A stretch of DNA of 64,000 bases, from the NCBI RefSeq assembly GCF_003019035.1, contig NZ_CP027447.1. One strand, 5' to 3'. The translations under genes were made by a program, and so were the position numbers. The DNA comes from Escherichia coli (GTDB taxonomy: Bacteria; Pseudomonadota; Gammaproteobacteria; Enterobacterales; Enterobacteriaceae). Shown here piece after piece: positions 3,183 through 58,097 of this stretch; position 1 is the stretch's first letter; every line of letters begins with the position of its first letter. The notes under the pieces were generated by a model. The model was not told the origin of the DNA, searched no databases, and was given only the letters and a program-made list of their open reading frames with translations.

Positions 3183-6100
3183 TTACCAGCTATATTTCAC
3201 ACCCAGCATGCCCTGAGTATCGCTATAGCCTTTATCACCTAGTTGCACACCGACATTCCCCCACAGGCTAAGGTTGTTATTTACTTTCGCCTCAACCCCG
3301 GTACGTACTTCACCGAGATTACGCGCACCATCACGGCTTACGTTTTGACCATTCATCTTCACGGCGTAGACTTTGCTGTTGTTGATCCAGTTCGCTTCAA
3401 TGTAAGGCTGGAACTCACGCTGTTTACCATTGTCACGCTGGTGATGACTGTTCTGGTAGGTTTTCACCCCAAGTCGTGTTTGCACGTTTCCGTCTCCTTC
3501 CGTTTCAATGCGTGTTCCGTCTTTCCGGGTATGGTCAGAATCTTTCACACCCATCCAGGTGATTTGTACCTGTGGCTGGACGTACCAGGTATTCAGCGTC
3601 CCTTCGCTGCCGCTAAATGTTCCCGCTTCAAAGGTATACCCACCCTCAACAGAGGCCGTCACACCGCGAGAATCATAGTCGTCAGCAGAACGGTTATCGG
3701 AACTGACGCTGTTATCAAACCAGTTATACAGCGCCCAGCTGTCAACATAAGCGCCGGTCTTATTCGCATCGTTCTGATACCAGGTCGCGTACAGTCCTGC
3801 GCTGTAACCGCTGATGCGCCCATCCGATTTATAACCCACATGATTACTCTGAGTATTACTGTGCTGATTGGCATAGCCTGCCATCACGCCGAGATGCCAG
3901 CGATCCTGCGCGTTGCTACTCCACTGCGCCAAATCGCCGCCTAGCTGCAATACATAGCGGTTAGCCTGAGTATTTAGCTGACCATCACCGGTCCTGAAAC
4001 GTTCGTGCCCTCCGACATGACGCATCCATATACTGGTTGCCGAATCCTGAACTCGCAGTGAATCTGTATACTGCGGCTCACCCAGACGGTCGTGTAAGCG
4101 ATGGCTAAACAGCGAGTTGGCTGCGGCAATGTTGCTGATATAGCTTCCGGCCTCCGGGCGATAAACTGATGGGCCTTCCGGATCCACAACAGGGGGATTA
4201 TTGATGGGATCGGGTGTATCCGCTGGCGTTACGCCGTCCCATTTACTGGTCAGATACCAGTTTTTCTCGTCATTCCCCTTCCCTTTAGCCAGCGTGTAGA
4301 CGTAAGCCCCAGCTTCGACAGTTCCGGTGGTCAGCGCGAAGTTACCTGCAGAATTACCGCCAACCTCAATGAGTTCAATACCGTTGACCGTTTGTGCACC
4401 GACGCCGCCAATGTTATTAACCCGAACGCGGGTATTGCCCTGCGTATCACCTTTTACGTTCATTTTATCCGTGGGGGAATTATCGCTACCCAGCGTCGCG
4501 TTGAACGTCATCAGGCCATTGTTTCCGGTATAGTTACCGTTAACGGTCAGTACATTCCCCGGTTTCCCCCCTTCGCTGTTCATTTGAACCGTGCCACCAT
4601 TCTCCAGGTTACCGCCGACAGTGGTTTTAGCGACACGCAGTGTCCCCCCAGGCATAACGTTCACATCACCTGCAGTGGTGACATTTCCCGACATCACACC
4701 GCTGTTATGGATATTAATGTGCTGACTTGCCATATTAATGGCAGAGTCGGAACCGAAAGCAATTTCACCACCCACGATATCCGTCGTACCCTGGTACGCC
4801 GCGGAATCGTTGTTAAGAGTCAGGATCCCGGACCCCAGTTTTGTCACACCGCCGCTACCGGTGATACTGTGCGTCATCGCCCAGCTACGCTCAGTGGAGA
4901 TGGTGAGCAGGCCATTATTGATAACGGAAGCATCACCCAGGTTTTTCTGCTCGTTGACGCTGAGCGCGCTGCCTGTATCAATGTTGAATTGCCCCACAAA
5001 GCGGCTATTATCGCCATCCAGCTCTACGTCTGTCCTGGCGGTTGCGCTCACGATACCCTTCCCGCTTATGCTATTACGCAGTTCGCCGGTCACGTTTTTT
5101 AGCGTTAACAGACCGTCATTGGCAATATTTCCTCTGCCTAACCCCTGCGTATTATCGAGGCTGACTTCCGCATTTGGGCTAACGCTGGTTAACGCATTGT
5201 AGCGTGCATTAAGCCCCTCGATAGCCAGCGTTCCCCCTGTAACATTCAGGTTTCCGCCACCTGTCAGTTCACCCTGACTGATCCCACCTTTATTCACCGT
5301 CAGCGACCCTTCTTTGAACAAAACAGTCGAACCCATCTGCCCGGTGAATGTCTCTACCGTCTGCGTCGATCCATTAAGATCGACGATGGCCGCGTTGCTG
5401 ATGTTCAGTTCCCGGGTGTTGCCCAGCGCGCCATCCGCATCGGTACGTAATGTCCCCATCTGAACGTAGGTTGCCCCCTGATAGTCGTTCTGACCGTTGG
5501 AAAGCGAAACCTGTCGCACCGTATTGATTGCCAGATCCCCTTCACCACCGATTTTTGCCGACATATCGGCCGTTGCGCCATAGGCTCCGCCATGTTCGGC
5601 TAATGTCAGCTTTTGCCCACCATGGATGTTCAGCGCTTTCAGCCCATAGTTAACGTACAAACCATCACCTGGTGCGGTCGTGAGGCGGAATCCATAATCA
5701 CCCTCGGCGACCACCGTTCCGTTTTGCGCAATGTGTAACGTTTTGTCCGCTTCCACCTCGTCGCCCTGTAAATCACGTAACGTTAATGAGCCACCCGACC
5801 CAATAACCGTTTGCGCCTTCACCAGTTGAACGCCGACATGGTTATCATCGTGTTCCAGCAAATTGAGCGTCGTCAGAGGGTTATTCGCCATGGGATCATT
5901 CCACGGTTTAGGCACGTCGATAAGCACGTCGCCCGTCCCGTTTACCTGATAGTTACGGCCTTTCCAGGTGTAGTCACCCGCGCCGACAGCCAGCGTATCG
6001 ACGCTGATATATCCCTCCGCAAGCGTCGCAGCAGGTATATCCGTATCGAAAGTGAGCGTACCGCCATTCATGGCTAGTCCACCAATGGATTGCTCTCCCA

Positions 6101-8603
6101 CGTTTACCGATGTGGTATTTTCACTGTCAGACTGAAGCATCGCGTGAGTAAGCGCAGCGGTGTTGTCGCGTTCCAGTGTGAAGGTACTGTCTTTCAGTTG
6201 GACAACACCGGCGAATTCAGTTCCTGTTGCATGGGTAAAGCCAAACATTTTGTCGGAGGATGACAGCTGCACTCGCATCAAGCCATCGCCTTTGAGCGCA
6301 TTGGTCAGCGTGTAATCTCCTGCGCTGTTCGTTGATGCGAGAATGTCGAGCGTACCGGGGCTTGCAATGGTGACTTCACTCGAACCCATGCCCGTTACCC
6401 CATCTGCCGTATGTGACGCAATGGTCAGGAGGCCGTCATTGACCAGCGTTTTACCGCTATAAGTATTCCCTGCATTGAACACCGTATGGCCTGCATCATG
6501 TATCACTTTTCCGTCTTTATCGTCACCCGTAATCAGCATATCGACCTGGTAGCCGGCATCACTGTTATTGGTATGATTAAAGACAAAAACACCTTCGCCA
6601 GAACCAAACTCTACTTTCGTCGCGTTGGCGATAAACCCGGCATCTGCCGCCGCCTCACCGTGAGCAGCACCAATGTTTAGCGTTCCTACAGCAGGTTCAA
6701 AAAGACCTAAGTAAACTTCGCCACCTTCGACATTCAGCGTGCCGTTATTCGTCAGGGTTAACGTACCCGTACCAGACGTCCCTACATTCATATTGAATGT
6801 TTCAAGAAGAGAGTTCTGCCCATCCACCCGCACGTCGCCCTTACTTTTGTCATTCAGAGCTATCTGTGTATCACGCGCTTTAACTATACCTCCGGTGGTA
6901 ATATTCAGTTCACCCGTACCTAATACACCGACCTGTAGCAATTGGGCGTTAGTAGATGACGTTTTTAAATTCCAGAGACTATCCGTTGAAATATTAACTA
7001 TCCCCTTACCGGAGGCATTTCCTCCGATAAATCCATAGCCCGTTGAATTAAGGGTGGCACCATTACTGACATTTACGATGCCGCTACCAAAATTACCGAC
7101 ATTGATACCTACAGTATCGAACGATGATGTCGCATCCATCAGGTTCAGTGTGCCGATACCGCTTGCTTTATCGCCCAAAAAAGTAATATTTTGCGATACG
7201 AACTTACCGCCATCGCTGATATTGAGGTTTCCGACGCCCGCAACACCAATGGTGGTGTAGACATTCTTATTGACCTCCCATATCCCCCCCGTGGTGATGC
7301 TAACCTTCCCGACGCCGGTTTCTCCATAACCGAGTGAACTTCCTCCGTTGCTGACAACAAGCCCCTCATTACTGATATTCATTTCGCCGTGGCCGTCATA
7401 ACCAAGATTAGTTCCGAGATTAGTGATAACGGAGTTCTTATCCTTAACAGTAATGTTGCCTGTGCCTGTTTCTTTCATCCCCGCAGTGATAATTCCCGAA
7501 TCTACTTTGCCTTCACTAGAGACATTAAGTTCACCGTCGCCAGCATCACCGATATAGATATAGCGGAAAGCTTCGCCCGTTCCGAGGAAATTCCAATGCC
7601 CTTTATCGGTCACGTTGACGACACCGTGGGAACCGTCCTGAACGCCCACCAATGAATATTCTTTGTTATTAATCAGTCCATTATTGGAAATATTGACTTT
7701 GCCATTACCGAAATATCCATTATAGAGTCTGCGTACCGTGATGACAGAGTCTTGATCCTGCACATTCAGGGTTCCGATACCGGTGGCATTGCCTCCGATA
7801 ATCGTATTTTCAGCCGTAATTAGCCCACCCTCGCGAATAGTCGCTTCCCCAGTTCCTTGATTACCAATTTGAAATTCAATTGAGGAATCGTTATTTTTTA
7901 TTAGCCACTCACCGCCCTTTTCAACGACAACCTTACCATTACTGTTCGCTTGATATCCTACAGTGGCGACTATTGAACTCGTGACGTAACCCTTATCCGT
8001 AATATTTAATGAGCCCGTACCGTAACTCCCTATTTCGAATAATTCGGTCGTCAGAACCGAGTCCTCTCCCTCAACATTAACCGTCCCGACGCCTCCTGTC
8101 GAAGAACCTATCCTTAAATATCCTCCGTCAACGTGACCCTTCTGTTTAATATTCAGCGTCCCCGTTCCGGATTGACCCACATTTAAAGGCCTTGCATTAT
8201 TTCCGCTATCATACAATCGCCAGGTCCCACCCAAAACATTAACGGTGCCCTCCGAGTCCTCATTAGCGCCAATGACGCTGGTAGTAATAGTGGTTAAGGA
8301 AGCATTACCGCCAGCCAAAATATTAAGCACTCCAGTGCCATACCAGCCAACCAGGTAGGCATCATAAGCAACATCAGTATCAATATTGGTAATCTGACCA
8401 TTATCAACTTCCAGACTCGCACCAGACGCTGAACCGCTTAGTGCCAGCAAAACACCCAGCGTCAATCTACTGAGTTTCGTTGTCAGTCCAGAGGATTTAC
8501 GCAAATTAACCGTCGATGTTTTACCTACCCTGCGAGTTAATTCAGAGCAGGCCTGAAATACCTGTAGAGTGCAATTCCATATCACGCGATAGATTCTATT
8601 CAT
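3183..8603 (-). CDS. AIDA-I-type autotransporter adhesin, 1806 aa, intact (YdeK/YneO-family locus)
   Basis: N-terminal extended signal peptide (MNRIYRVIWN...), long Gly/Thr/Asn-rich beta-helix passenger repeats, C-terminal beta-barrel ending ...LGVKYSW. Confidence 0.85.
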   Translation of the reverse strand: MNRIYRVIWNCTLQVFQACSELTRRVGKTSTVNLRKSSGLTTKLSRLTLGVLLALSGSASGASLEVDNGQITNIDTDVAYDAYLVGWYGTGVLNILAGGNASLTTITTSVIGANEDSEGTVNVLGGTWRLYDSGNNARPLNVGQSGTGTLNIKQKGHVDGGYLRIGSSTGGVGTVNVEGEDSVLTTELFEIGSYGTGSLNITDKGYVTSSIVATVGYQANSNGKVVVEKGGEWLIKNNDSSIEFQIGNQGTGEATIREGGLITAENTIIGGNATGIGTLNVQDQDSVITVRRLYNGYFGNGKVNISNNGLINNKEYSLVGVQDGSHGVVNVTDKGHWNFLGTGEAFRYIYIGDAGDGELNVSSEGKVDSGIITAGMKETGTGNITVKDKNSVITNLGTNLGYDGHGEMNISNEGLVVSNGGSSLGYGETGVGKVSITTGGIWEVNKNVYTTIGVAGVGNLNISDGGKFVSQNITFLGDKASGIGTLNLMDATSSFDTVGINVGNFGSGIVNVSNGATLNSTGYGFIGGNASGKGIVNISTDSLWNLKTSSTNAQLLQVGVLGTGELNITTGGIVKARDTQIALNDKSKGDVRVDGQNSLLETFNMNVGTSGTGTLTLTNNGTLNVEGGEVYLGLFEPAVGTLNIGAAHGEAAADAGFIANATKVEFGSGEGVFVFNHTNNSDAGYQVDMLITGDDKDGKVIHDAGHTVFNAGNTYSGKTLVNDGLLTIASHTADGVTGMGSSEVTIASPGTLDILASTNSAGDYTLTNALKGDGLMRVQLSSSDKMFGFTHATGTEFAGVVQLKDSTFTLERDNTAALTHAMLQSDSENTTSVNVGEQSIGGLAMNGGTLTFDTDIPAATLAEGYISVDTLAVGAGDYTWKGRNYQVNGTGDVLIDVPKPWNDPMANNPLTTLNLLEHDDNHVGVQLVKAQTVIGSGGSLTLRDLQGDEVEADKTLHIAQNGTVVAEGDYGFRLTTAPGDGLYVNYGLKALNIHGGQKLTLAEHGGAYGATADMSAKIGGEGDLAINTVRQVSLSNGQNDYQGATYVQMGTLRTDADGALGNTRELNISNAAIVDLNGSTQTVETFTGQMGSTVLFKEGSLTVNKGGISQGELTGGGNLNVTGGTLAIEGLNARYNALTSVSPNAEVSLDNTQGLGRGNIANDGLLTLKNVTGELRNSISGKGIVSATARTDVELDGDNSRFVGQFNIDTGSALSVNEQKNLGDASVINNGLLTISTERSWAMTHSITGSGGVTKLGSGILTLNNDSAAYQGTTDIVGGEIAFGSDSAINMASQHINIHNSGVMSGNVTTAGDVNVMPGGTLRVAKTTVGGNLENGGTVQMNSEGGKPGNVLTVNGNYTGNNGLMTFNATLGSDNSPTDKMNVKGDTQGNTRVRVNNIGGVGAQTVNGIELIEVGGNSAGNFALTTGTVEAGAYVYTLAKGKGNDEKNWYLTSKWDGVTPADTPDPINNPPVVDPEGPSVYRPEAGSYISNIAAANSLFSHRLHDRLGEPQYTDSLRVQDSATSIWMRHVGGHERFRTGDGQLNTQANRYVLQLGGDLAQWSSNAQDRWHLGVMAGYANQHSNTQSNHVGYKSDGRISGYSAGLYATWYQNDANKTGAYVDSWALYNWFDNSVSSDNRSADDYDSRGVTASVEGGYTFEAGTFSGSEGTLNTWYVQPQVQITWMGVKDSDHTRKDGTRIETEGDGNVQTRLGVKTYQNSHHQRDNGKQREFQPYIEANWINNSKVYAVKMNGQNVSRDGARNLGEVRTGVEAKVNNNLSLWGNVGVQLGDKGYSDTQGMLGVKYSW

Positions 8604-47784: not shown

Positions 47785-49068
47785 TTAAAGACTTCTGGAA
47801 GGTTGCGCAGCTCTGACAACATGCGGTTGATCTTCCGCAGCGTCTTCCAGCGCACTTAAATCACGGTCTTTCACTTCTGGCATTTTCAGCGCAGAAATTA
47901 AACCAATCACTGAATATGCCATGATCATAATTGCGATCGGATACCAGGATTCCGTCATGGTGCAGAAAATACCCGCCAGGATAGGACCAAAACCGGAAGC
48001 GATAAGACCACCAATTTCTTTAGAAATGGCCATCCGGGTAAAGCGGTTTTTACAGCCGAACATTTCTGCCATGGTAATGTTTTCCAGAGCAAATAATCCA
48101 AGCACCGCACAGTTATGAATCACAATCAGTGCAACCATAATGGTGCTCGGGGCATAGCTTTTATCTACGATGATAGAAAGCATTGGCCATGCCAGCACAA
48201 TCGCAGAGGTATTCATAATAATATACGGGATCCGGCGACCAATTTTATCGGATAACCAACCAAGGAACGGAATGGTCATAAAGCCGAGAATCGAACTGAT
48301 CATCAATGCATCTGTTGGAATTGCTTTGTTAAACAATAACGTCTGCACTAAATAGCCTGCAAGGAAAGTCTGAATTAAACCTGAGTTACCAGCCTGACCA
48401 AAACGCAGCCCTGTTGCCAGCCAGAAGGATTTGCTCTGGAACATGCTACCAGCAGGTGCAGGTTTTGCTGTAGGTTGGTTGCTGTCGTTAACCTTCTCAA
48501 AGACCGGGCTTTCTTTCAGATTCATACGCAACCAGATAGCAAAGACCATCACGACAACGCTCGCCAGGAACGGTATACGCCATCCCCACGCCAACAGTTC
48601 CTCTTTACTGAGAATGAAGAACATAAAGGCCCAGATTGCCGTTGCGCTCAAGGTTCCGCAGTTAGTCCCCATAGCAACAAATGAGGAGATAATTCCGCGC
48701 TTACCTTTTGGCGCATATTCCGCCAGCATCGTACCGGCACCGGAAATTTCCGCGCCTGCCCCCAGCCCCTGAATAATACGCAGCGTCACCAGCAAAATTG
48801 GCGCAAACACACCAATTTGTGCATAGGTCGGCAGCACACCAATTAAGGTGGTACAGATCCCCATCATGGTGATGGTAATAAAGAGCACTTTTTTACGCCC
48901 TATTCTGTCGCCCATTTTGCCGAAAATAAATGCTCCGACAATACGTGCCACATAACCTGCACCATAGGTTCCCATTGCCAGAATTAACGCCATTGCCGTT
49001 GACGATTCAGGAAAAAATATTTCATGAAAAACTAACGCTGCGCCGAGCGAATATAACTGGAAATCCAT
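47785..49068 (-). pseudogene. ydfJ: MFS metabolite:H+ symporter YdfJ, 5'-truncated at the prophage junction
   Basis: The 427-aa ORF begins inside what aligns to TM1 of ProP/ShiA-family transporters (MDFQLYSLGAALVF… matches the …MEWFDFGVYGF… region), so the N-terminal tail and part of TM1 are missing; prophage genes start immediately upstream. Confidence 0.7.
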
Positions 49069-49853
49069 AATTCACAGGTGTTTTTTCCCATCCTGTGGTT
49101 TCCTTGGCGTTTTCTAGGTTTTTTCAGATAGTTGCATTTTTTAAAAAGCATCCTAAGTTCGATCTCAGTGTCTATCTGGGGCCTATTTCTGTCCCATATA
49201 TGCCCCAAAAAAACTCCCCAACAGATAAGTAGTTTTTTCATGGATTTATGCGTAAAATCAAGAACGGCTGGAAATCATTCAATACTCACACTATCGAAAA
49301 ATTTACCAGCCAACCGCAGCACGTTCTTGCATAAGGCGTGTCTGCGGTTTTTCAACTATTCAGATACATCACTCCCATCACATTCATTCCTCCGCATCAA
49401 AGGCATATAGGCTATATCACCTTGATATTTTTCTTTTTCAGATAAAAACTGTTATCTATGTATACTTTTAAACCCAATCCGTGTAGAGTCTCTGCATAAG
49501 ATAGTTTGCAGTTGCCGCTTCAGCTTGCGCCATAAACCGCCTGATTTTTGCTGCCACCTGTTAGCATTCCTGTATACCTGAAACGACAATGTTTATCTAC
49601 GAACTTTAAGAACACCCAAGATAAAAATTGTCAACTATATCATATATAACACATTACTAATTCGAGGCTATATGAACAGCATACTGATAATCACTTCTCT
49701 CCTTATCATATTCAGCATTTTTAGTCATGCCCTAATAAAATTAGGGATTGGCATATCCAATAACCCAGACAAAACCGATGTATAAGTCAACATATCCTGA
49801 ATCAGACATACAATATCGCAATGAAAATCAATAATATTTTAAGGAATATCTTC

Positions 49854-50087
49854 ATGAAATCAAAAGACACCCTAAAGTGGTTCCCTGCGCAGCTTCCTGA
49901 AGTAAGAATTATCCTAGGGGATGCTGTAGTGGAAGTAGCAAAACAGGGAAGACCTATCAATACCAGAACATTGCTTGATTACATTGAAGGAAACATAAAG
50001 AAAAAATCATGGCTGGATAACAAAGAATTATTACAAACAGCGATATCAGTTCTTAAAGACAACCAAAATTTAAATGGTAAAATGTAA
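49854..50087 (+). CDS. ydfK: Prophage small protein YdfK (77 aa from MKSKDTLKWF)
   Basis: Start chosen at the ATG with AAGGA Shine-Dalgarno (49854) rather than the track ATG at 49821; recognised as YdfK/YnaE family. Confidence 0.75.
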   Translation: MKSKDTLKWFPAQLPEVRIILGDAVVEVAKQGRPINTRTLLDYIEGNIKKKSWLDNKELLQTAISVLKDNQNLNGKM

Positions 50088-50403
50088 TATAATAAACTTA
50101 CTTTTTTATCATTTTTCCACTTTAACAACATTTTGCTCCACTTTTCCACGACCAAACAACTTGAAATCTGGTTAAAATAACACGCAACACTATTCTTCTT
50201 CCTTGAGTCCGCCCGGAACTCGAAAAACAAACCGAGTTAAAGCCATTTCTCACAAAACCGATTTTGGGTCTCACCAAAATTACGGGGTTGCATACGCATT
50301 CGTTTATTTTCGAACGTGTACATACAAATATGCACAAAAATAATCAAAATTATTTTCTGAGATGCATTATGATATGAACACCAATTTCGTATAGAGTCTC
50401 ACT

Positions 50404-50994
50404 ATGTCTCGAATTTTTGCTTACTGTCGGATATCAACGCTGGATCAGACCATCGAAAATCAACGCCGGGAAATCGAAAGTGCAGGTTTTAAAATCAAAC
50501 CTCAGCAAATAATCGAAGAACACATTAGCGGCTCAGCAGCAACCAGTGAGCGTCCTGGTTTTAACCGGTTGCTTGCTCGCCTGAAATGTGGTGATCAATT
50601 GATTGTGACAAAACTGGATCGCCTTGGTTGTAATGCAATGGATATCAGGAAAACAGTGGAACAACTGACCGAAACAGGTATCAGAGTGCATTGCTTAGCA
50701 TTGGGGGGCATTGACCTGACCAGTCCAACAGGAAAAATGATGATGCACGTAATTTCAGCAGTCGCTGAATTTGAACGAGACCTTTTACTTGAACGCACTC
50801 ATTCCGGGATAGTAAGAGCCCGCGGCGCAGGGAAACGTTTTGGTCGACCACCTGTGTTAAATGAAGAACAGAAACAGGTGGTATTCGAACGAATTAAGTC
50901 AGGTGTAAGTATAAGTGCCATTGCCCGGGAATTCAAAACCTCGCGGCAAACCATTTTAAGAGCCAAAGCAAAACTTCAGACACCTGATATATAA
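50404..50994 (+). CDS. pin: Serine recombinase, Pin/Gin/Hin-family DNA invertase (196 aa)
   Basis: N-terminal resolvase catalytic domain (…[10 protein letters not shown]…) and C-terminal HTH; convergent with the tail-fibre genes. Confidence 0.9.
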
Positions 50995-51091
50995 AAAATA
51001 ATCTCGGTGTGAGATGCTTTACGTCTTCCAAGCCCCCTTCCTTGCCGTAAATGGAAAGATACATCTAATTATAGAATTTATATGTTTTACC

Positions 51092-51208
51092 CTACGGCAG
51101 TGCTGGCCATTCAATATCCTGTGCAGTTGACGTATCAACACGGTTCAGCAATACCCGATACTTTTTCCATGCTTCCAGCAACGAGGTTTCTTCCTCCGTT
51201 GCATATAC
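51092..51208 (-). pseudogene. tfa: 3' remnant of a tail-fibre assembly gene (tfa), about 38 codons
   Basis: Frame encodes …[38 protein letters not shown], matching the conserved Tfa C-terminus; homology stops abruptly upstream. Confidence 0.6.
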
Positions 51209-51221
51209 AGCCCACCTTTTT

Positions 51222-51515
51222 TCACCCACGATTAACCAACAGCCAGACCAGCAGACACGCCACCACCGGCACAGCAAAATCCATCAGGCTTGCCACATCC
51301 CACGCGCGCGGATCAAAACCGCCCCACCACGGCATATTCATTCGCTTGCCATGCCCGAACATTTCAATCCAGCGATATTCTGCCTGGGTATGTTCACGCG
51401 CAATGAAGAACGTACAACCGGCTATCGCTCCGTAAGCCCAGTTTCCGGTAAAAAGACCAACCAGTATCTGCGCAGCCACAGCACAAAGTGCATGAAGTAA
51501 GGGGCTTATATCCAT
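51222..51515 (-). CDS. Hypothetical small membrane protein (97 aa, two predicted TM segments)
   Basis: Hydrophobic stretches [28 protein letters not shown] and [15 protein letters not shown]; no lipobox; lies where the tfa body is expected. Confidence 0.5.
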
Positions 51516-51527
51516 TATTTCCTCCTT

Positions 51528-51806
51528 TCAGCTCCATTCCCGAAGCGGTGTTTCCAGCTCCACGACATAATCAGAGAATACAGAAACATCAAACAAGTCA
51601 TCAAGAATGCGAATGTTGACAAAATAACCGTTATTCCGGATACAGACAGGTTCTCCCTCTTCAGTTACCCCTGTTTCTGTGTAGGTGAAACCAATTTCAT
51701 CGACTAACAGTTTATTCTGGAGGTCTTCATCTTCCTCCCAGTCAAGAGATGACAGGAAGGATTTAAACTCTCTGTTACCAGGAAATTTCAAAGTTAAATC
51801 TTTCAT
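51528..51806 (-). CDS. Hypothetical small acidic protein (92 aa); possible fibre chaperone or moron product
   Basis: ORF immediately downstream of, and 4-nt overlapping, stf; Asp/Glu-rich; no resemblance to Tfa that I can see. Confidence 0.5.
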   Translation of the reverse strand: MKDLTLKFPGNREFKSFLSSLDWEEDEDLQNKLLVDEIGFTYTETGVTEEGEPVCIRNNGYFVNIRILDDLFDVSVFSDYVVELETPLREWS

Positions 51807-53833
51807 ACTGCCTCCTTGATTTGCCTGTCATTTAATTCTTTAAACCAGACTCTGAAATTTCTGATGTGTCCAAACAAATGACGCGTTCCTGCTGCGGTCT
51901 GCCCACCAAACCGGTACGATGTTGCTGTAACTCCAAATATTTTACCATTAAGGTTTGTTGTATAATTACCATTGCATATTGCATTTACTGATAAATCAGA
52001 TTTAGCTCTCACACCCACAATGAACCTTTCTCCATCTGAGGAAATTTGTGGCTGAACCATTCCTACGTTGGCGCTTATCTTTCCTGTTGAAACAAACCCC
52101 AGCGATAAATAATTATCATCAATACTGTGCCCTCCAACATCAAATATCCTTGGCGCAACATTGGGCGGTGTACTCCAGTTCCTCCTTACTTCGCACAATA
52201 CTGTAAAAGGCCGTGTTGACAGGTTATTCGCCGAGGGGATAGTAACCACATCACTTGCGCGTGTTGTTGGCATTGTAGTTACAATAAATGACGATGCCGT
52301 ATTGCCCAGTTCAATTTGCGGCGTCGTCATGGTTAATGTTGAGTCATCATAGAATGGCTCATTACTTATTTTATTTGTCATATAAAAAGCACAGTTAACG
52401 GTATCAATGTCCGTATTAGCTGTATAAGTGGCCTCATAGTAGGTCCACTCGCCCTGTTGTTCAGCTTTGGCTGTTATAAGGGATGTATTACCGCTTACTG
52501 TTGCGATCCGGGTATCCAGATCAAGATAAGAGTCAGCAGAGAATGTATCTGTTCCACCAATAATAACTGAAACTCTTAACCTGCATCGTGCTTTAGCGCC
52601 TTTAACCCGGCACGAAAAAGTGAAACATTCACCACTTGCCAGCGGGAATCTGTCTGCTGCAACCACACCATGCACAGTATAGCCACCTGTTGTTCCCACT
52701 ATACTTTCCGTGGGTGTCACCGTGGCATAATTGAACCCCTGTTTATCAGTGCCAAATGTTTTATTCAGTGCGGAATGAACAGTCCATGAGTCTGGTTTAT
52801 TTGAGTTCCTCAGATAATTTGTCCTCTGTCCTTCAATCAATAAGCCATCGCGCTCAAATCGCGGTTCGTCAACTTCAGCAAGCTTGAGTTGGCCGGACTT
52901 ATTAATATACGTTGCTGTTGAAGCACGTTTAAACTTAACAATCTTGTCGCCTGGCATTGTTATTTCATCGTCACCAATAACAATCTTTTTATAAGATGGC
53001 GAAAAACCCGTAATCATATCCAGCGAATCGTTAAACGGTATCCACACATCAGGCAGCGGCGGCACTATATTCGCATAGGGCTCTGCAGTCACTTCCGCTG
53101 CGGCTTCTGCGCGGTCTGCCGCCTTTTCAGCTCGTGTCGCTGCCGACAGAGCCTCATCCTTTTTCTGCCCGGCCTTTGTTGCGTCTGCTGCGGCCTCCCG
53201 CGCTTTTGTGGTGGCGACTCCGGCATTTTCAGCGGCTGACTCTGCATTACGGCGGGAAGCCTCTTCACTGTCTGCGGAGGCTTCTTCTGACGCACGGGCA
53301 TTTGTCTCTGAACGTTCTGCCGCTGTTGCTGCGTTTTGTGCGGCTGTTTTTGAAGAAGCTGCCGCTTTCGCGCTGTTACCTGCATTCGTCTCTGATGTTT
53401 TCGCCGCGTTCCTGGACGATGCCGCTGCTGTTTCTGATTTCTTTGCTGCCGCTGCGCTCTGAGAGGCGGCTTCAGCGTTGCGTGCTGCTTCTTCCACCAT
53501 TGCCTCAAAACGACGCAATGCCTCCGGCATGACATCATCTTCCGTCATGGCACCGAGAAAATCATTCAGCGTACCAGGTCTGGAACCTTCATAGACGGTA
53601 ATGGTTCCGGCATGTGAAGGCGGAAAACCTTCAACCAGCAGGGTGACGCTGTACTGGCCATACTCGACATCCATGCTGTAACGCCCGGCTTCATCCGGAT
53701 TTTCAGAGGCTACCGTGTTCACCAGTACCGTGGTGCTGTTACGCTTTGCCTTCAGTTGAATAGTGCAGTTCTGTATTGGTTTTCCCGCACCATCTTTCAG
53801 CACACCTGAGATTTTTACTGCTGCCATATCCAC
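51803..53833 (-). CDS. stf: Side tail fibre protein Stf (676 aa) with lambda-type N-terminus and lectin-like C-terminal domain
   Basis: N-terminus MDMAAVKISGVLKDGAGKPIQNCTIQLKAKRN… matches lambda Stf; Ala-rich coiled segment; C-terminus …HLFGHIRNFRVWFKELNDRQIKEAV resembles the terminal strand of Laminin-G/concanavalin-like domains. Confidence 0.85.
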   Translation of the reverse strand: MDMAAVKISGVLKDGAGKPIQNCTIQLKAKRNSTTVLVNTVASENPDEAGRYSMDVEYGQYSVTLLVEGFPPSHAGTITVYEGSRPGTLNDFLGAMTEDDVMPEALRRFEAMVEEAARNAEAASQSAAAAKKSETAAASSRNAAKTSETNAGNSAKAAASSKTAAQNAATAAERSETNARASEEASADSEEASRRNAESAAENAGVATTKAREAAADATKAGQKKDEALSAATRAEKAADRAEAAAEVTAEPYANIVPPLPDVWIPFNDSLDMITGFSPSYKKIVIGDDEITMPGDKIVKFKRASTATYINKSGQLKLAEVDEPRFERDGLLIEGQRTNYLRNSNKPDSWTVHSALNKTFGTDKQGFNYATVTPTESIVGTTGGYTVHGVVAADRFPLASGECFTFSCRVKGAKARCRLRVSVIIGGTDTFSADSYLDLDTRIATVSGNTSLITAKAEQQGEWTYYEATYTANTDIDTVNCAFYMTNKISNEPFYDDSTLTMTTPQIELGNTASSFIVTTMPTTRASDVVTIPSANNLSTRPFTVLCEVRRNWSTPPNVAPRIFDVGGHSIDDNYLSLGFVSTGKISANVGMVQPQISSDGERFIVGVRAKSDLSVNAICNGNYTTNLNGKIFGVTATSYRFGGQTAAGTRHLFGHIRNFRVWFKELNDRQIKEAV

Positions 53834-53891
53834 TCCACAAAAAAGCCCGCCTGAACCGGCGGGCTGTCATAACACTGTGTTACCTGGCTAA

Positions 53892-54491
53892 TCAGAATTT
53901 ATAACCGACACCCACGATGAAACCGTCAGTGCGCCAGTCACCACTGCCGGAACCTTCATAAGCAAGGTCAATGGCCACGGATTCGGTCGGGTTAAACTGC
54001 ACGCCAGCCCCCCACGCCAGAGACGTGTTGCTGTGGCGACCGTCATCACTTCCGGTCAGCACATCGTGCGTTTTCCCCTTGTTGTCAGTTACGCGGAGAT
54101 AATCCCCGGAGAAGGTCGACACACGGCTGTAAGCCATACCCGCCATCGCATACGCGCTGAACCATTCATTCACGCGCACAGACGGCCCCGCCATCACGCT
54201 GAACCAGCGGTTACGCACGGAATCTTCATGCCAGCGGGTATCGCTGTAATGCGTTTTTTGCTCATCTTTGGCATTGGCATAACTGAATGACGTCACCAGC
54301 CCCAGCGTGTCCGTAAACTCATAACGGTATTTCACGTTAATCCCGTTCAGATCATCGCTGCCGGGAACGTTCGTCGAGGCATGAAGATACCCCGCGCTCA
54401 GCGTGGACTGATGTTCAGACGCCCATGCAGGCGCACCGGATACGGCCAGACAAATGGCTACGGACAAAATGGCGGCATAAAGTTTACGCAT
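53892..54491 (-). CDS. lom: Lom outer-membrane protein (Ail/PagC/Lom family)
   Basis: Signal peptide plus 8-strand beta-barrel family sequence ending …GFIVGVGYKF. Confidence 0.9.
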   Translation of the reverse strand: MRKLYAAILSVAICLAVSGAPAWASEHQSTLSAGYLHASTNVPGSDDLNGINVKYRYEFTDTLGLVTSFSYANAKDEQKTHYSDTRWHEDSVRNRWFSVMAGPSVRVNEWFSAYAMAGMAYSRVSTFSGDYLRVTDNKGKTHDVLTGSDDGRHSNTSLAWGAGVQFNPTESVAIDLAYEGSGSGDWRTDGFIVGVGYKF

Positions 54492-54557
54492 AATTACCTC
54501 TCGCTTTTCTGCAATAAAAAAGGCGTCATTTCTGACGCCCGTTATGGGTTATAAAAT

Positions 54558-57500
54558 TCAGCTGATACTGATGCCTGCGGTGGCTTTCTTCATCACCACA
54601 ACCAGCAAATCGCTGATACTTGCTGTGGGATACCAGTCATTTACCAGCCATGCTGACACCGAAAACTCCAGCGTCATGTGGCCGTGACCAGCTGGCATAT
54701 CAATAACGCCACTGTAAATCAGCGTATTATCCAGCGCGGTACGGTTATAAATTTCAGCACCGTTTTTCCGCACTATCAGACGGCATGAGGAGTAAATATC
54801 AGTATGCTCTCTCTCATGTTTAGCACCGCTGAATGCCACCGCCGGAATAACAATCTGCCGGTCAAACGGCTGATCGTCATAAATCCTGACGGTAATGGTC
54901 CCTGATGGCCACCGCTCCGGTGCCCGGGAGTCCCGCGGGAAAGCCTTACCCACTGTTTTGACAATATCGCCTTCAATCTGGTTGGCTGACAGTTTCCCTT
55001 TAATCTGACAGTTCTCATTTATCGTAACGTTGTTGAGCGTCCCGGCGTTCGCATTCACACTGCCACTGATATCCGCATTTTTCGCCGTCAGTCGCCCGTC
55101 CGGTGTCAGGGAAAATGCCGGAGGATTACCGCCGCTGGTAATGGTGGGAGCCGTCAGATATTTCAGGAACACGTCATTCATGAATATCTGATCGCCCTGA
55201 CCAACAAACATCGGCTTTGTGTTGCCATTCGCAGGATTAATCATCGCAATCCTGTCTGCCGCCAGCAGCACCTGACTCTGCATGCCGTCGGGGGTGTTCT
55301 CAATACCGGCACCGATACCCGCAATATAAAGGCGTCCGTCCTGCATCTGCTGCAGCTTCACTGCCCACATGCTGTTCAGGTTATTATTTGTATCAACCTG
55401 AACCTTCTGTATCTGCTGGATCGCTGCACTCTGGTCTTCCAGTTTCTTATTGACGGTCTGTGTTATTTCATTGCTGACATCCGTTATGGACGTCCTGATT
55501 TCAGTCAGGTCAGGCGCAAGCTGACCGTTATCAATCTGCGTCCACAGCTCCTGAGCCAGATGGGTTTTCCCTATCTCGCCTTTGAAAAAATCCAGATAGC
55601 CGGATGCATCATCACTCGGCTGACCAACAGCCTCCACGAATGCCGATTTGCCAACGGTGTTCACACTGCGAACATAAAAATAATAATCATGGCCCGGTTT
55701 GATATTGATACTGGCGGCTATCCAGTACAGCGCCGTACCAAGATAACGCGCGCTGGTTTCAACCTGCCTGATATCAGCAATCCGTTTTTCCGAGAACCAG
55801 AACTCAAACTGTACCGTCGGATCATAAACCGCAAGATGCGGCGTGGCGGTTATCTGAAAATAGCCCGGCGTCAGCTCAATCCGCGACGGCGCTGCCGGTG
55901 CGGCAATCCGGAACGATACCGACGCCGGATCGCCCTGCTGCCCCCACGCATTTACTGCCCGGACTGTCAGCCTGTAGTTCCCCAGAGCCAGTTGTGTGAA
56001 GCGGTAAGTGGTTTCCGTCGTCCGGGCCGTGCTGACCAGCCGCTCACTGCCGTCATCCGCTGCCACGGTCAGGCGAAGCAGGAAGCTCACGCCCTTCACC
56101 ACCTTCGGTGTGTCCCATCGCGCCAGCACCTGATATTCCCCGCTGTCTGCAGTGACTTCTGCGGTCAGGTGCTGCACTGCTGGCGGCGTGACACCATTCA
56201 CCGTGCCGCTCTGGTCACCGTCAAAGTGCGCCCCGTTATCCACGATGGCTTCTTTCTCCGGTACATGCTGCACGGCAGTGATGGCATACGTACCGTCATC
56301 GTTCTCACGGATACTCACACAGCGGAACAGACGCTGGCGCAGCGTCGGCAGCTTCAGCCCCCATACGCTGTATTCAGCAACACCGTCAGGAACACGGCTC
56401 ACTTTTACCTTCACGCCGTCGGTGACGGACTGAACCTCCACGCTGACCGGATTGCCACTTCCGTCAACCAGGCTTATCAGCGTGGTACCGGAGGATGGCA
56501 GCGTGATTTCACGGTCGAGCGTCAGCGTCCGGGTCTGGCTGTTCACCGCCAGCACGCGACCACCGATGCTGATACCGGCATAGTCATCATCACAGATTTC
56601 AATGACATCGCCCGGTACATGGCGAAGCCCTTCTGCGCCCACGCTGAAGTCCACGGTCTGCGTTTCCAGCAGTTCCGTTTTAATCAGCCACAGCCCGGCG
56701 CGGTGCGCCTGCCCCCGGCTGGTACAGCCAAAAGCATCCATCTTCGTGACGTTACGACCGTAACGGGCAATGGCCTGCGTGTCCTCCACAAGCTCTGTTG
56801 CCGTTTCCCAGCCGTTATCCGGGTCAATCCAGTTCACTTCAACGGCATTATGGCGGTCCTTCAGGGCGCTGAAGCTGTAGCGGAACGGCGCGCCATCATC
56901 CGGCATCACCACATTACTGCGGTTATAGGTCCACACCTTATCCGACGGTCGGTCCTGCACGAACGTCAGCGTCTGCCCGTTCCATACCGGCATACAGCGC
57001 ATCGCCGAGCAGAAATCACTGAGCACATCCCACGCCTTGCGCTGTGTGGTCAGGTACGCATTACAGGTAATGCGCGGCTCCGTGCCGCCAAAGCCGTCCG
57101 GCACCGACTGGTCGCAGTACTGGCCGATGACATACAGCGCCCATTTATCCACATCCGCCGCACCAAGACGTTTCCCCATGCCGTAGCGCGGATGGGTCAG
57201 CATATCCCACAGACACCAGGCCATGTTGTTGCTGTATGCTGGCTTAAACGTTCCGTCCCAGATACCGCTGTATTGCCGCGTCAGCGGGTTATAGTTCGAC
57301 GGCACCTGCAGAATACGCCCGCGCAGATGATAATTACGGCTCACCTGCTGGCTGCCGAACTGCTCCGAGTCCACCTGCACGCCGACCAGTGCCGTGTTCG
57401 GGTAGCACTGTTTCACATCGATGATTTCGGTGTATGACGACCAGAGCGTTTTGTTCTGCAGCTGGTCTGTAGTGCTGTCCGGCGTCATCCTGCGCATCCG

Positions 57501-58034
57501 GATACTGAACGGGCGCGGCGGCAGGTTACCCACCACCACCGAGGCCAGATACTGTGAGGTGGTTTTGCCTTTAATGGTGATGTCTTTTTCCGTCACCCAG
57601 CCACCGTTACGTTGTATCTGAACCAGCAGGCGGACTTCCGACGGATTCCGGTCACCCTTTGAGGTGGTTTCCACCAGTGCCTGCACACCAAAGGTAAAGC
57701 GCAGACGGTCGATATTTGCAGACGTGATGGTGCGGGTTATCGGCGTGTCGTATTTCACTTCCGTACCCAGCACCGTCTCGGAGCCGGAGGATTCAAAACC
57801 CTCCGGCGGTGTCTGCTCCTGCTCACCGGCCCGGAACACCACCGTGACACCGGCGATGTTGGTATTCCCTTCGCTATCCAGCACCGGCGTACTGTTCAGC
57901 AGCACGCTTTTTAATCCATCCACCGGACCTTCAATCGGCCCTTCGCTGATGGCATCGATCACACTCAGTAACTGCGTGGATTTCAGGTTGTCCTTCGCTT
58001 CGCGCGGGGTATGCCCCTTACTGCTGCCTTTACC
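54558..58034 (-). CDS. J: Tail tip host-specificity protein J (start at [15 protein letters not shown])
   Basis: N-terminal ~850 aa match lambda J as I recall it; C-terminal ~300 aa diverge; the track ORF extends 16 codons upstream. Confidence 0.9.
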
Positions 58035-58097
58035 CATTCCTAACGCTCCATAAACGACAAAACCGCCCGGAGGCGGTTTCACATAAAATATTTTGCA

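Follow-up and report, generated by a model that had tools for sequence, protein, structure and literature searches.

What does a lambdoid side tail fibre carry at its tip, and which gene accompanies that tip, at a locus where tfa has been reduced to a scar? The question is raised by the stf gene of a prophage in Escherichia coli contig NZ_CP027447.1 (assembly GCF_003019035.1), of which a stretch of 64,000 nucleotides, hereafter the window, was analysed; all positions refer to it. An earlier note, made from the letters of this stretch, had described stf as a chimera of a lambda-type anchor, an Ala-rich rod, and a carbohydrate-binding jelly-roll tip. That observation is confirmed, and its interpretation is supported for the architecture and the fold; the function we infer. 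The best explanation of the locus as a whole, which we consider probable, is a lambda-type side fibre with an Ala-rich shaft, a glycan-binding two-domain head, and a 92-residue partner protein (p92), built by recombination of a cassette. The features are listed in Table 1.

A Lambda-Type Anchor and an Ala-Rich Shaft

The N-terminus is of the lambda Stf type, as the earlier note had it. Besides the Pfam match given in Table 1, PDB entry 9e7m ("tail fiber protein") aligns to Stf residues 5–97 (E = 5.8e-49), and the anchor is ~88% identical to the solved collar domain of Ur-lambda Stf (residues 1–94). A BLASTP comparison with lambda orf-401 gives 73% identity across Stf residues 5–161, with nearly all mismatches beyond residue ~110, and DNA similarity to lambda stf stops at window position 53490, around codon 114. 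In Ur-lambda, residues 1–94 of Stf form a six-stranded sheet and a helix, 12 Stf collar domains ring the tail at the gpV–gpM junction, and each of the four trimeric fibres is tied by flexible linkers to three of these domains (PMC12617516). Because the collar domains of the two proteins are so similar, it is a safe inference that Stf attaches to the tail in the same way.

The low-complexity segment rich in Ala, Ser, Glu, and Lys is also as described, residues 110–250 consisting of 38% Ala, 13% Glu, 11% Ser, 8% Thr, and 7% Lys. By comparison with Ur-lambda Stf, this shaft is presumably a trimeric bundle, and it would be ~23 nm long as an alpha-helical coiled coil. Spurious open reading frames (ORFs) of 84–149 residues overlap it in other frames and on the opposite strand (window 53089–53538), which is typical of GC-rich repetitive coding sequence and does not indicate extra genes.

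Ur-lambda gpStf (PF08400, 9e7m) shares with the present protein the collar domain, an Ala-rich shaft with the same opening sequence, and the position after J and lom. The fibres differ distally: the lambda one needs Tfa, has a gp37-like tip, and binds OmpC (PMC12617516), whereas in the present protein a lectin-like head of two domains takes the place of the distal part, p92 comes next, and of tfa only the 36-codon scar is left.

A Two-Domain Head with a Lectin-Like Fold

The C-terminal region of Stf, ~420 residues ending in ...IRNFRVWFKELNDRQIKEAV, is covered by PHROG 1419 ("tail protein", E = 6e-298). A direct homologue search with this head gave just near-identical E. coli copies, so its alignment was built from a search of 1.84 billion representative proteins (50% representatives), in which 1401 relatives were found at E ≤ 1e-3. 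For modelling, 55 diverse relatives with 24–53% identity were aligned.

The earlier note had seen a single lectin-like tip; this has to be amended, as there are two beta domains behind a conserved neck. Domain 1 (D1) matches NCBIfam NF048003 GTA_spike_fiber over residues 332–526, with 66.8 bits against a curated cutoff of 36. The family profile of the head finds, over D1, the RcGTA head spike fibre Rcc01080 (E = 5e-40), and also a phage gp17 tail fibre, E217 gp45, and Pa193 gp46 (1e-16 to 3e-19). Domain 2 (D2, here residues 527–673) covers positions 4–151 of the 151 in Pfam Laminin_G_3 (PF13385). The match of the protein itself is weak (independent E value, i-E, 0.0026), and 23 of 56 diverse head homologues have one at E ≤ 1e-3, the best at 1.9e-11. 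Over the D2 columns, the family profile matches BoNT/D Hcn, pentraxins, and an S-layer protein. The reading of the ...GHIRNFRVWFKELNDRQIKE ending as the last strand of a LamG_3 domain was therefore probably correct, since D2 aligns with Laminin_G_3 from end to end. Laminin_G_3 and concanavalin A (ConA)-like lectins, such as the carbohydrate-binding module CBM40, BoNT Hcn, pentraxins, and laminin G, have the fold and the C-terminal strand motif in common with D2, their sequence similarity to it being marginal.

The AlphaFold2 model of the head (last ~420 residues) is all beta, with a predicted local distance difference test (pLDDT) score of 91.7 and a predicted template modelling (pTM) score of 0.87. 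In this model D2 has the beta-sandwich jelly-roll fold of Laminin_G_3 and ConA-like lectins. Foldseek comparisons agree: the closest folds are carbohydrate binders, and the top structural neighbours are noncatalytic modules. The claim that the tip differs from those of lambda and of K-12 Qin StfQ holds as well, as alignments of the head with the C-terminal half of lambda Stf (orf-314) and with K-12 StfQ revealed similarity to neither. The observation that would have spoken against the jelly-roll, a tip of the T4 gp37 or lambda Stf kind, did not emerge from domain search or structure prediction, no such structure being among the head profile and Foldseek matches. Pfam searches of Stf and its homologues found no Peptidase_S74 (pfam13884) autocleaving chaperone domain, and no glycoside hydrolase (GH) or polysaccharide lyase (PL) family was detected in the head. 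At the level of the fold, domain searches and the model thus support a lectin-like head, and this part of the earlier claim stands; that the head binds carbohydrate is suggested by homology and fold.

The family has conserved ends and variable cores. Strong conservation is found in the neck PLPDVWIPFNDSL (residues 259–271), in FKRASTATY...EPRFE..GLLIEGQRTN (300–339), in PQIELG..ASSF....TRASD (505–529), and in LFGHIRNFRVW...L.D.QI (650–672), the latter comprising the last strand of D2 and a helix. Between them, the cores of D1 (residues 340–500) and D2 (530–650) vary strongly, the pattern expected of changeable surfaces on a fixed scaffold. Five residues, R325, E334, Q506, E508, and R525, are invariant.

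Relatives of the Head in Other Particles

The relative most informative about function is Rcc01080 (PDB 6tb9, NF048003), which shares with D1 the motifs FxRASxATY...NEPRFE...GLLIEG and QLE...SSxIPT...TRAxD. It mediates capsule binding, and as a fluorescent fusion it attached better to cells with a capsule than to cells lacking one (PMC7296036, PMC10218006). Whereas Stf is presumably a trimeric tail fibre, Rcc01080 sits in a capsid pentamer as one chain, and no LamG-type second domain is evident in it, since the match covers residues 43–279 of 325. A D1-like domain is also found in E217 gp45 and Pa193 gp46, which belong to myovirus baseplates, and in the tail fibre gp17 (8env, 9b45, 9occ). In gp45 and gp46 it sits in a fibre-anchoring baseplate subunit, whereas in Stf it lies at the fibre end.

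Among lytic phages, Gp22 of IrisVonRoten (Bas32) has a homologous head (43% identity over 415 residues) followed by a p92 homologue, bas32_0023. Gp22 differs from Stf by its T5-type N-terminal anchor and by the distal T-shaped fibre Gp24 encoded after p92. The same head module is found in other T5-, T1-, and 9g-like phages. The BASEL 2025 study describes a "galectin-like domain" in Gp22, the proximal lateral tail fibre, proposes it as an additional receptor-binding domain, and predicts Gp22 to be the attachment point of the T-shaped Gp24 fibre (PMC11990801). LtfA of DT57C was considered as a T5-like counterpart and rejected, its tip being a different module with the pfam13884 chaperone domain.

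Essentially the same fibre is found in temperate infant-gut coliphages (Lambda_4B5, Lambda_2E9, Lambda_ev058, Lambda_ev066, Lambda_ev203, and 1H12; LR595863 and others), whose fibres are 98–99% identical in amino acids and which have the same p92 and the same 97-residue gene (p97) after it. They differ from the present prophage only in flanking cargo and in site. In Lambda_4B5 (LR595863), the near-identical stf is separated from J by an IS4 transposase, and p97 is followed by sitABCD, an operon for a manganese/iron transporter.

A 92-Residue Gene Invariably Follows the Head

The earlier note had seen no intact tfa downstream of stf. This is so, only the 36-codon tfaQ scar being left. Its account lacked the 92- and 97-residue genes, intact and well-signalled, that lie between stf and the scar. 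Because the tip has its own conserved partner in p92, the fibre is not orphaned despite the loss of tfa.

The pairing was counted in two scans of IMG/VR, one seeded with p92 and the other with the head. In the first, D1/D2 lie directly upstream of p92 in all 54 loci, two of which are cut by a contig end and show D2 only. In the second, among the best 80 head loci, the start of p92 falls between –3 and +11 nt from the head stop in 79; the remaining one is cut by a contig end, so that p92 follows 79 of 79 untruncated loci. A p92 homologue also directly follows a homologous head in the T5-like Stokescottia and IrisVonRoten, the T1-like swan01, the rV5-like EdH4 (110 residues), the Nonagvirus JenP2, the Seuratvirus VogelGryff, and lambdoid phages. 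In VogelGryff, the label "putative lateral tail fiber chaperone" was considered for the p92 homologue and rejected, as the locus table assigns it to the next gene, of 388 residues. Even three remote heads (28–34% identity) are each followed by a p92 homologue of ~100 residues (39.8, 24.3, and 21.6 bits); these share the motifs LDVIG...GYHVN.R...P.R.WA, and their loci are a Mu-like baseplate operon, a siphovirus locus where the head comes after the J gene, and a tandem pair of heads. p92 is the invariable genomic partner of the head. On one metagenomic contig (2373–5246), two tandem paralogous heads (424 and 425 residues) precede a single p92 homologue, and IMGVR_UViG_2724679539_000001 has two head loci in inverted orientation, ~2.6 kb apart.

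p92 has a confident AlphaFold2 fold that, in sequence and fold comparisons, resembled no known family or structure; in particular, it matched neither Tfa nor gp38 nor any other known fibre chaperone in sequence or fold. The divergence of head and p92 is moderately correlated (r = 0.67), and heads ~45% identical can adjoin p92 copies that are 82–91% identical. An allele-specific contact between the two is not supported by these values. p92 more likely contacts the conserved framework of the head, because it stays so similar beside divergent heads; alternatively, recombination swaps the variable core only. To judge from its position, p92 would either help assembly or stay in the fibre as an accessory subunit, and in branched fibres it might be an adaptor for the distal fibre. 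We propose tentatively, with somewhat less than even confidence, that p92 represents a class of fibre accessory protein not described so far: in siphoviruses as in myoviruses it would be tied to the GTA-spike/LamG head by genetics and probably by physical contact, would serve that head as a dedicated assembly factor or retained subunit, and would be unrelated to Tfa, gp38, and intramolecular chaperones. If so, the head would be a portable glycan-reading module needing only p92 to be transplanted onto any fibre shaft.

p97 accompanies the tip and p92 in most lambdoid prophage loci; it is confined to lambdoid prophages and was not found in lytic phages. It may be a membrane protein for lysogenic conversion or exclusion.

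A Probable Cassette Exchange at the Qin Locus

The ydfJ end of the prophage is the Qin attachment site. An identical prophage in E. coli GF131 (region 2234491–2278241) covers ~46 kb between integrase and pinQ, with a complete lambda-like complement of head and tail genes. The prophage therefore appears to be a complete-looking lambdoid relative of the cryptic Qin of K-12. The prophage (window ~49000–64000 and the GF131 region) carries the Qin cargo dicB, hokD, cspB/F/I, gnsB, and ydfK.

Downstream of stf, the order is the 92-residue ORF, the 97-residue ORF, a tfaQ remnant of 111 nt, pinQ, ydfK, ynfT, and a truncated ydfJ. Pin-type invertases normally flip an stf/tfa segment, and here pinQ is intact with no such segment remaining. 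Collinearity with K-12 Qin resumes exactly at the tfaQ scar (window ≤51203, 98.4% identity), and lambda similarity ends in stf at the position given above. We suggest that a cassette with the end of the rod, the head, p92, and p97 (~window 51204–53490) would have been acquired by recombination, the two joints falling in the shaft region and within tfaQ, the latter of which would have left the scar. This cassette probably replaced the distal part of Stf and most of tfa at the Qin locus.

Distribution of the Head and p92

Fibres of this type are common and already annotated in E. coli, and the chimera is not unusual. Head and p92 of this allele (at least 80% coverage and at least 95% identity) are present in 516 of 5426 complete E. 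coli genomes (~10%), and partial matches, with the conserved ends and p92 and including other alleles, in 1532 (~28%). The protein database contains 2715 close relatives of the head. Among phage records, 197 have a full-length head and 144 a detectable p92. The tip is found on anchors of lambda, T1, T5, 9g, Dhillon, rV5, and Mu type. PGAP already names head proteins from the two domain models. For Stf, the label "phage head spike fiber domain-containing protein" misleads, because the context makes this protein a tail fibre. To our knowledge, the strict pairing of head and p92 across unrelated phage groups and the cassette replacement at Qin have not been spelled out before.

Side tail fibres set the adsorption speed and the target strains of lambdoid phages and of lambda-derived delivery particles. 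The head is a self-contained cassette, with a neck, two beta domains, and one 92-residue partner gene, and with conserved flanks for recombination around a variable core. This composition defines the parts to move together in engineered chimeric Stf proteins; the Eligo chimeric-STF paper did not use a head of this type.

What the Head May Do

We propose that twelve Stf collar domains would ring the tail at the gpV–gpM junction and give four trimeric fibres, as in Ur-lambda, each with a shaft that would be a trimeric coiled coil of ~20–25 nm. The three lectin-like heads of a fibre would bind a surface polysaccharide (lipopolysaccharide [LPS], O-antigen, capsule, or another glycan), allowing a fast and reversible first adsorption, after which J would engage the terminal receptor. 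In the head, specificity would come from the hypervariable cores, with the conserved strands at either end of the domains as scaffold. p92 would stand in for a Tfa-type chaperone, either by helping assembly or by staying bound to the conserved framework as an accessory subunit. A glycan-binding head is the best-supported reading because Rcc01080 binds capsule, the fold is that of lectins and carbohydrate-binding modules, and the cores are variable.

Several observations weigh against this proposal. A tip allele 95% identical to that of IrisVonRoten occurs in Salmonella and E. coli T5-like phages alike, and many carriers were isolated on rough K-12; the head may not read a serotype-specific O-antigen, or may not decide the host range. 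For this reason no O16 or other O-antigen specificity is claimed. The idea that the IrisVonRoten head allele tracks O16-infecting phages was rejected, as the alleles nearest to it belong to T5-like phages of Salmonella and E. coli, with JakobBernoulli not among them. In lytic phages, moreover, the head sits on a "proximal" fibre that bears a second, distal one, so that it may have a docking role (PMC11990801). Finally, the five invariant residues could mark a catalytic or metal site and not a scaffold.

The docking role can be taken further, to a head that is mainly a hub where the lectin-like domains, perhaps through p92 as an adaptor, carry a distal fibre protein, the receptor being bound elsewhere. 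A short second fibre gene, of S74/IMC type or Gp53-like_C, indeed follows p92 in lytic phages and in a Mu-like prophage (Stokescottia, IrisVonRoten, JenP2, and loci L143 and L145), the predicted attachment of Gp24 to the head-bearing Gp22 goes in this direction (PMC11990801), and E217 gp45, with its D1-like domain, is a baseplate protein that anchors the tail fibre. Yet at the present locus, as in most lambdoid ones, p97 comes next and a second fibre gene is missing; in E217 the fibre-attachment loop (residues 76–123) is outside the D1-like region (199–392); and the authors of the BASEL study themselves propose an extra receptor-binding domain (PMC11990801). The strong variability of the head cores also suits a reader of receptors better than a conserved joint, and we consider a mere hub unlikely. 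The invariant residues, for their part, would fit a glycanase, lyase, or esterase that degrades or modifies the surface polysaccharide instead of binding it passively. Such an enzyme is less likely because the structural neighbours are noncatalytic and no GH or PL family was detected, and we give it little credence.

A head that binds an outer-membrane protein instead of a glycan would resemble lambda Stf, which uses OmpC (PMC12617516); LamG and pentraxin-type domains can bind proteins, and growth on rough K-12, seen for many carrier phages, is in line with this. Nevertheless, the sole homologue with a binding test, Rcc01080, prefers capsule-bearing cells, the closest folds to the head are carbohydrate binders, and glycans are the targets generally ascribed to lateral fibres in the lytic carrier families, which makes a protein receptor very unlikely. 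It is still harder to believe that stf is a nonfunctional relic in a decaying prophage. The truncated tfa, the pinQ without an invertible segment, and the cryptic state of K-12 Qin at the same site could be taken as signs of decay, but the stf ORF is intact with good translation signals, the prophage of GF131 is identical and has the full lambda-like gene set, near-identical fibres are found in isolated temperate phages (Lambda_4B5, Lambda_2E9), and the allele is kept at 95% identity or more in 516 complete genomes. A glycan-binding head remains, among these readings, the one that we prefer.

Gene Start and Neighbouring Features

In the window, as in the annotation of GF131, the order J–lom–stf is that of a lambdoid late operon. 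The gene identical to stf in GF131 starts in RefSeq at an ATG two codons downstream of the GTG (window position 53827), giving 674 residues (WP_097291164.1, "prophage tail fiber N-terminal domain-containing protein"). This ATG is the likelier start, because a GGAG Shine-Dalgarno sequence lies 5 nt upstream.

Table 1. Position of the fibre gene, its domains, and its neighbours in the window
Feature	Coordinates	Strand	Description
pinQ invertase	50404..50994	+	Intact; without a remaining invertible stf/tfa segment
tfaQ scar	51092..51202	-	Last 36 codons of a Tfa-type assembly gene; 97% identical to TfaQ 156–191
p97 (97-residue ORF)	51222..51515	-	Predicted small membrane protein; phrog_1443; strong Shine-Dalgarno; two to three hydrophobic segments
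p92 (92-residue gene)	51528..51806	-	ATG overlaps stf stop (ATGA); AGGAGG Shine-Dalgarno; phrog_1361
stf (side tail fibre gene)	51803..53833	-	Uninterrupted maximal ORF, 676 residues from GTG 53833; stop at 51803–51805
Head domain 2 (D2)	51806..52252	-	Residues 528–676; Laminin_G_3 / concanavalin A-like
Neck and head domain 1 (D1)	52253..53068	-	Neck PLPDVWIPFNDSL (residues 259–271) and D1 (residues ~300–527); GTA head-spike-fibre-type beta sandwich
Ala/Glu/Ser-rich shaft	53069..53536	-	Residues ~100–255; only 2 Pro and 3 Gly
N-terminal collar/anchor domain	53432..53821	-	Residues 5–134; Pfam phage_tail_N (PF08400), E = 7.8e-67
GC-rich hairpin and run of six T's	53839..53864	-	In the lom–stf gap, immediately before the stf Shine-Dalgarno; read from the sequence
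lom	53892..54491	-	Context gene, upstream of stf
J (central tail fibre / tip attachment gene)	54558..58082	-	Context gene

The hairpin with its T-run is terminator-like and lies inside the late operon. Elsewhere, in the chromosomal part of the window, there is an ORF of 1806 residues (3183–8603, minus strand).

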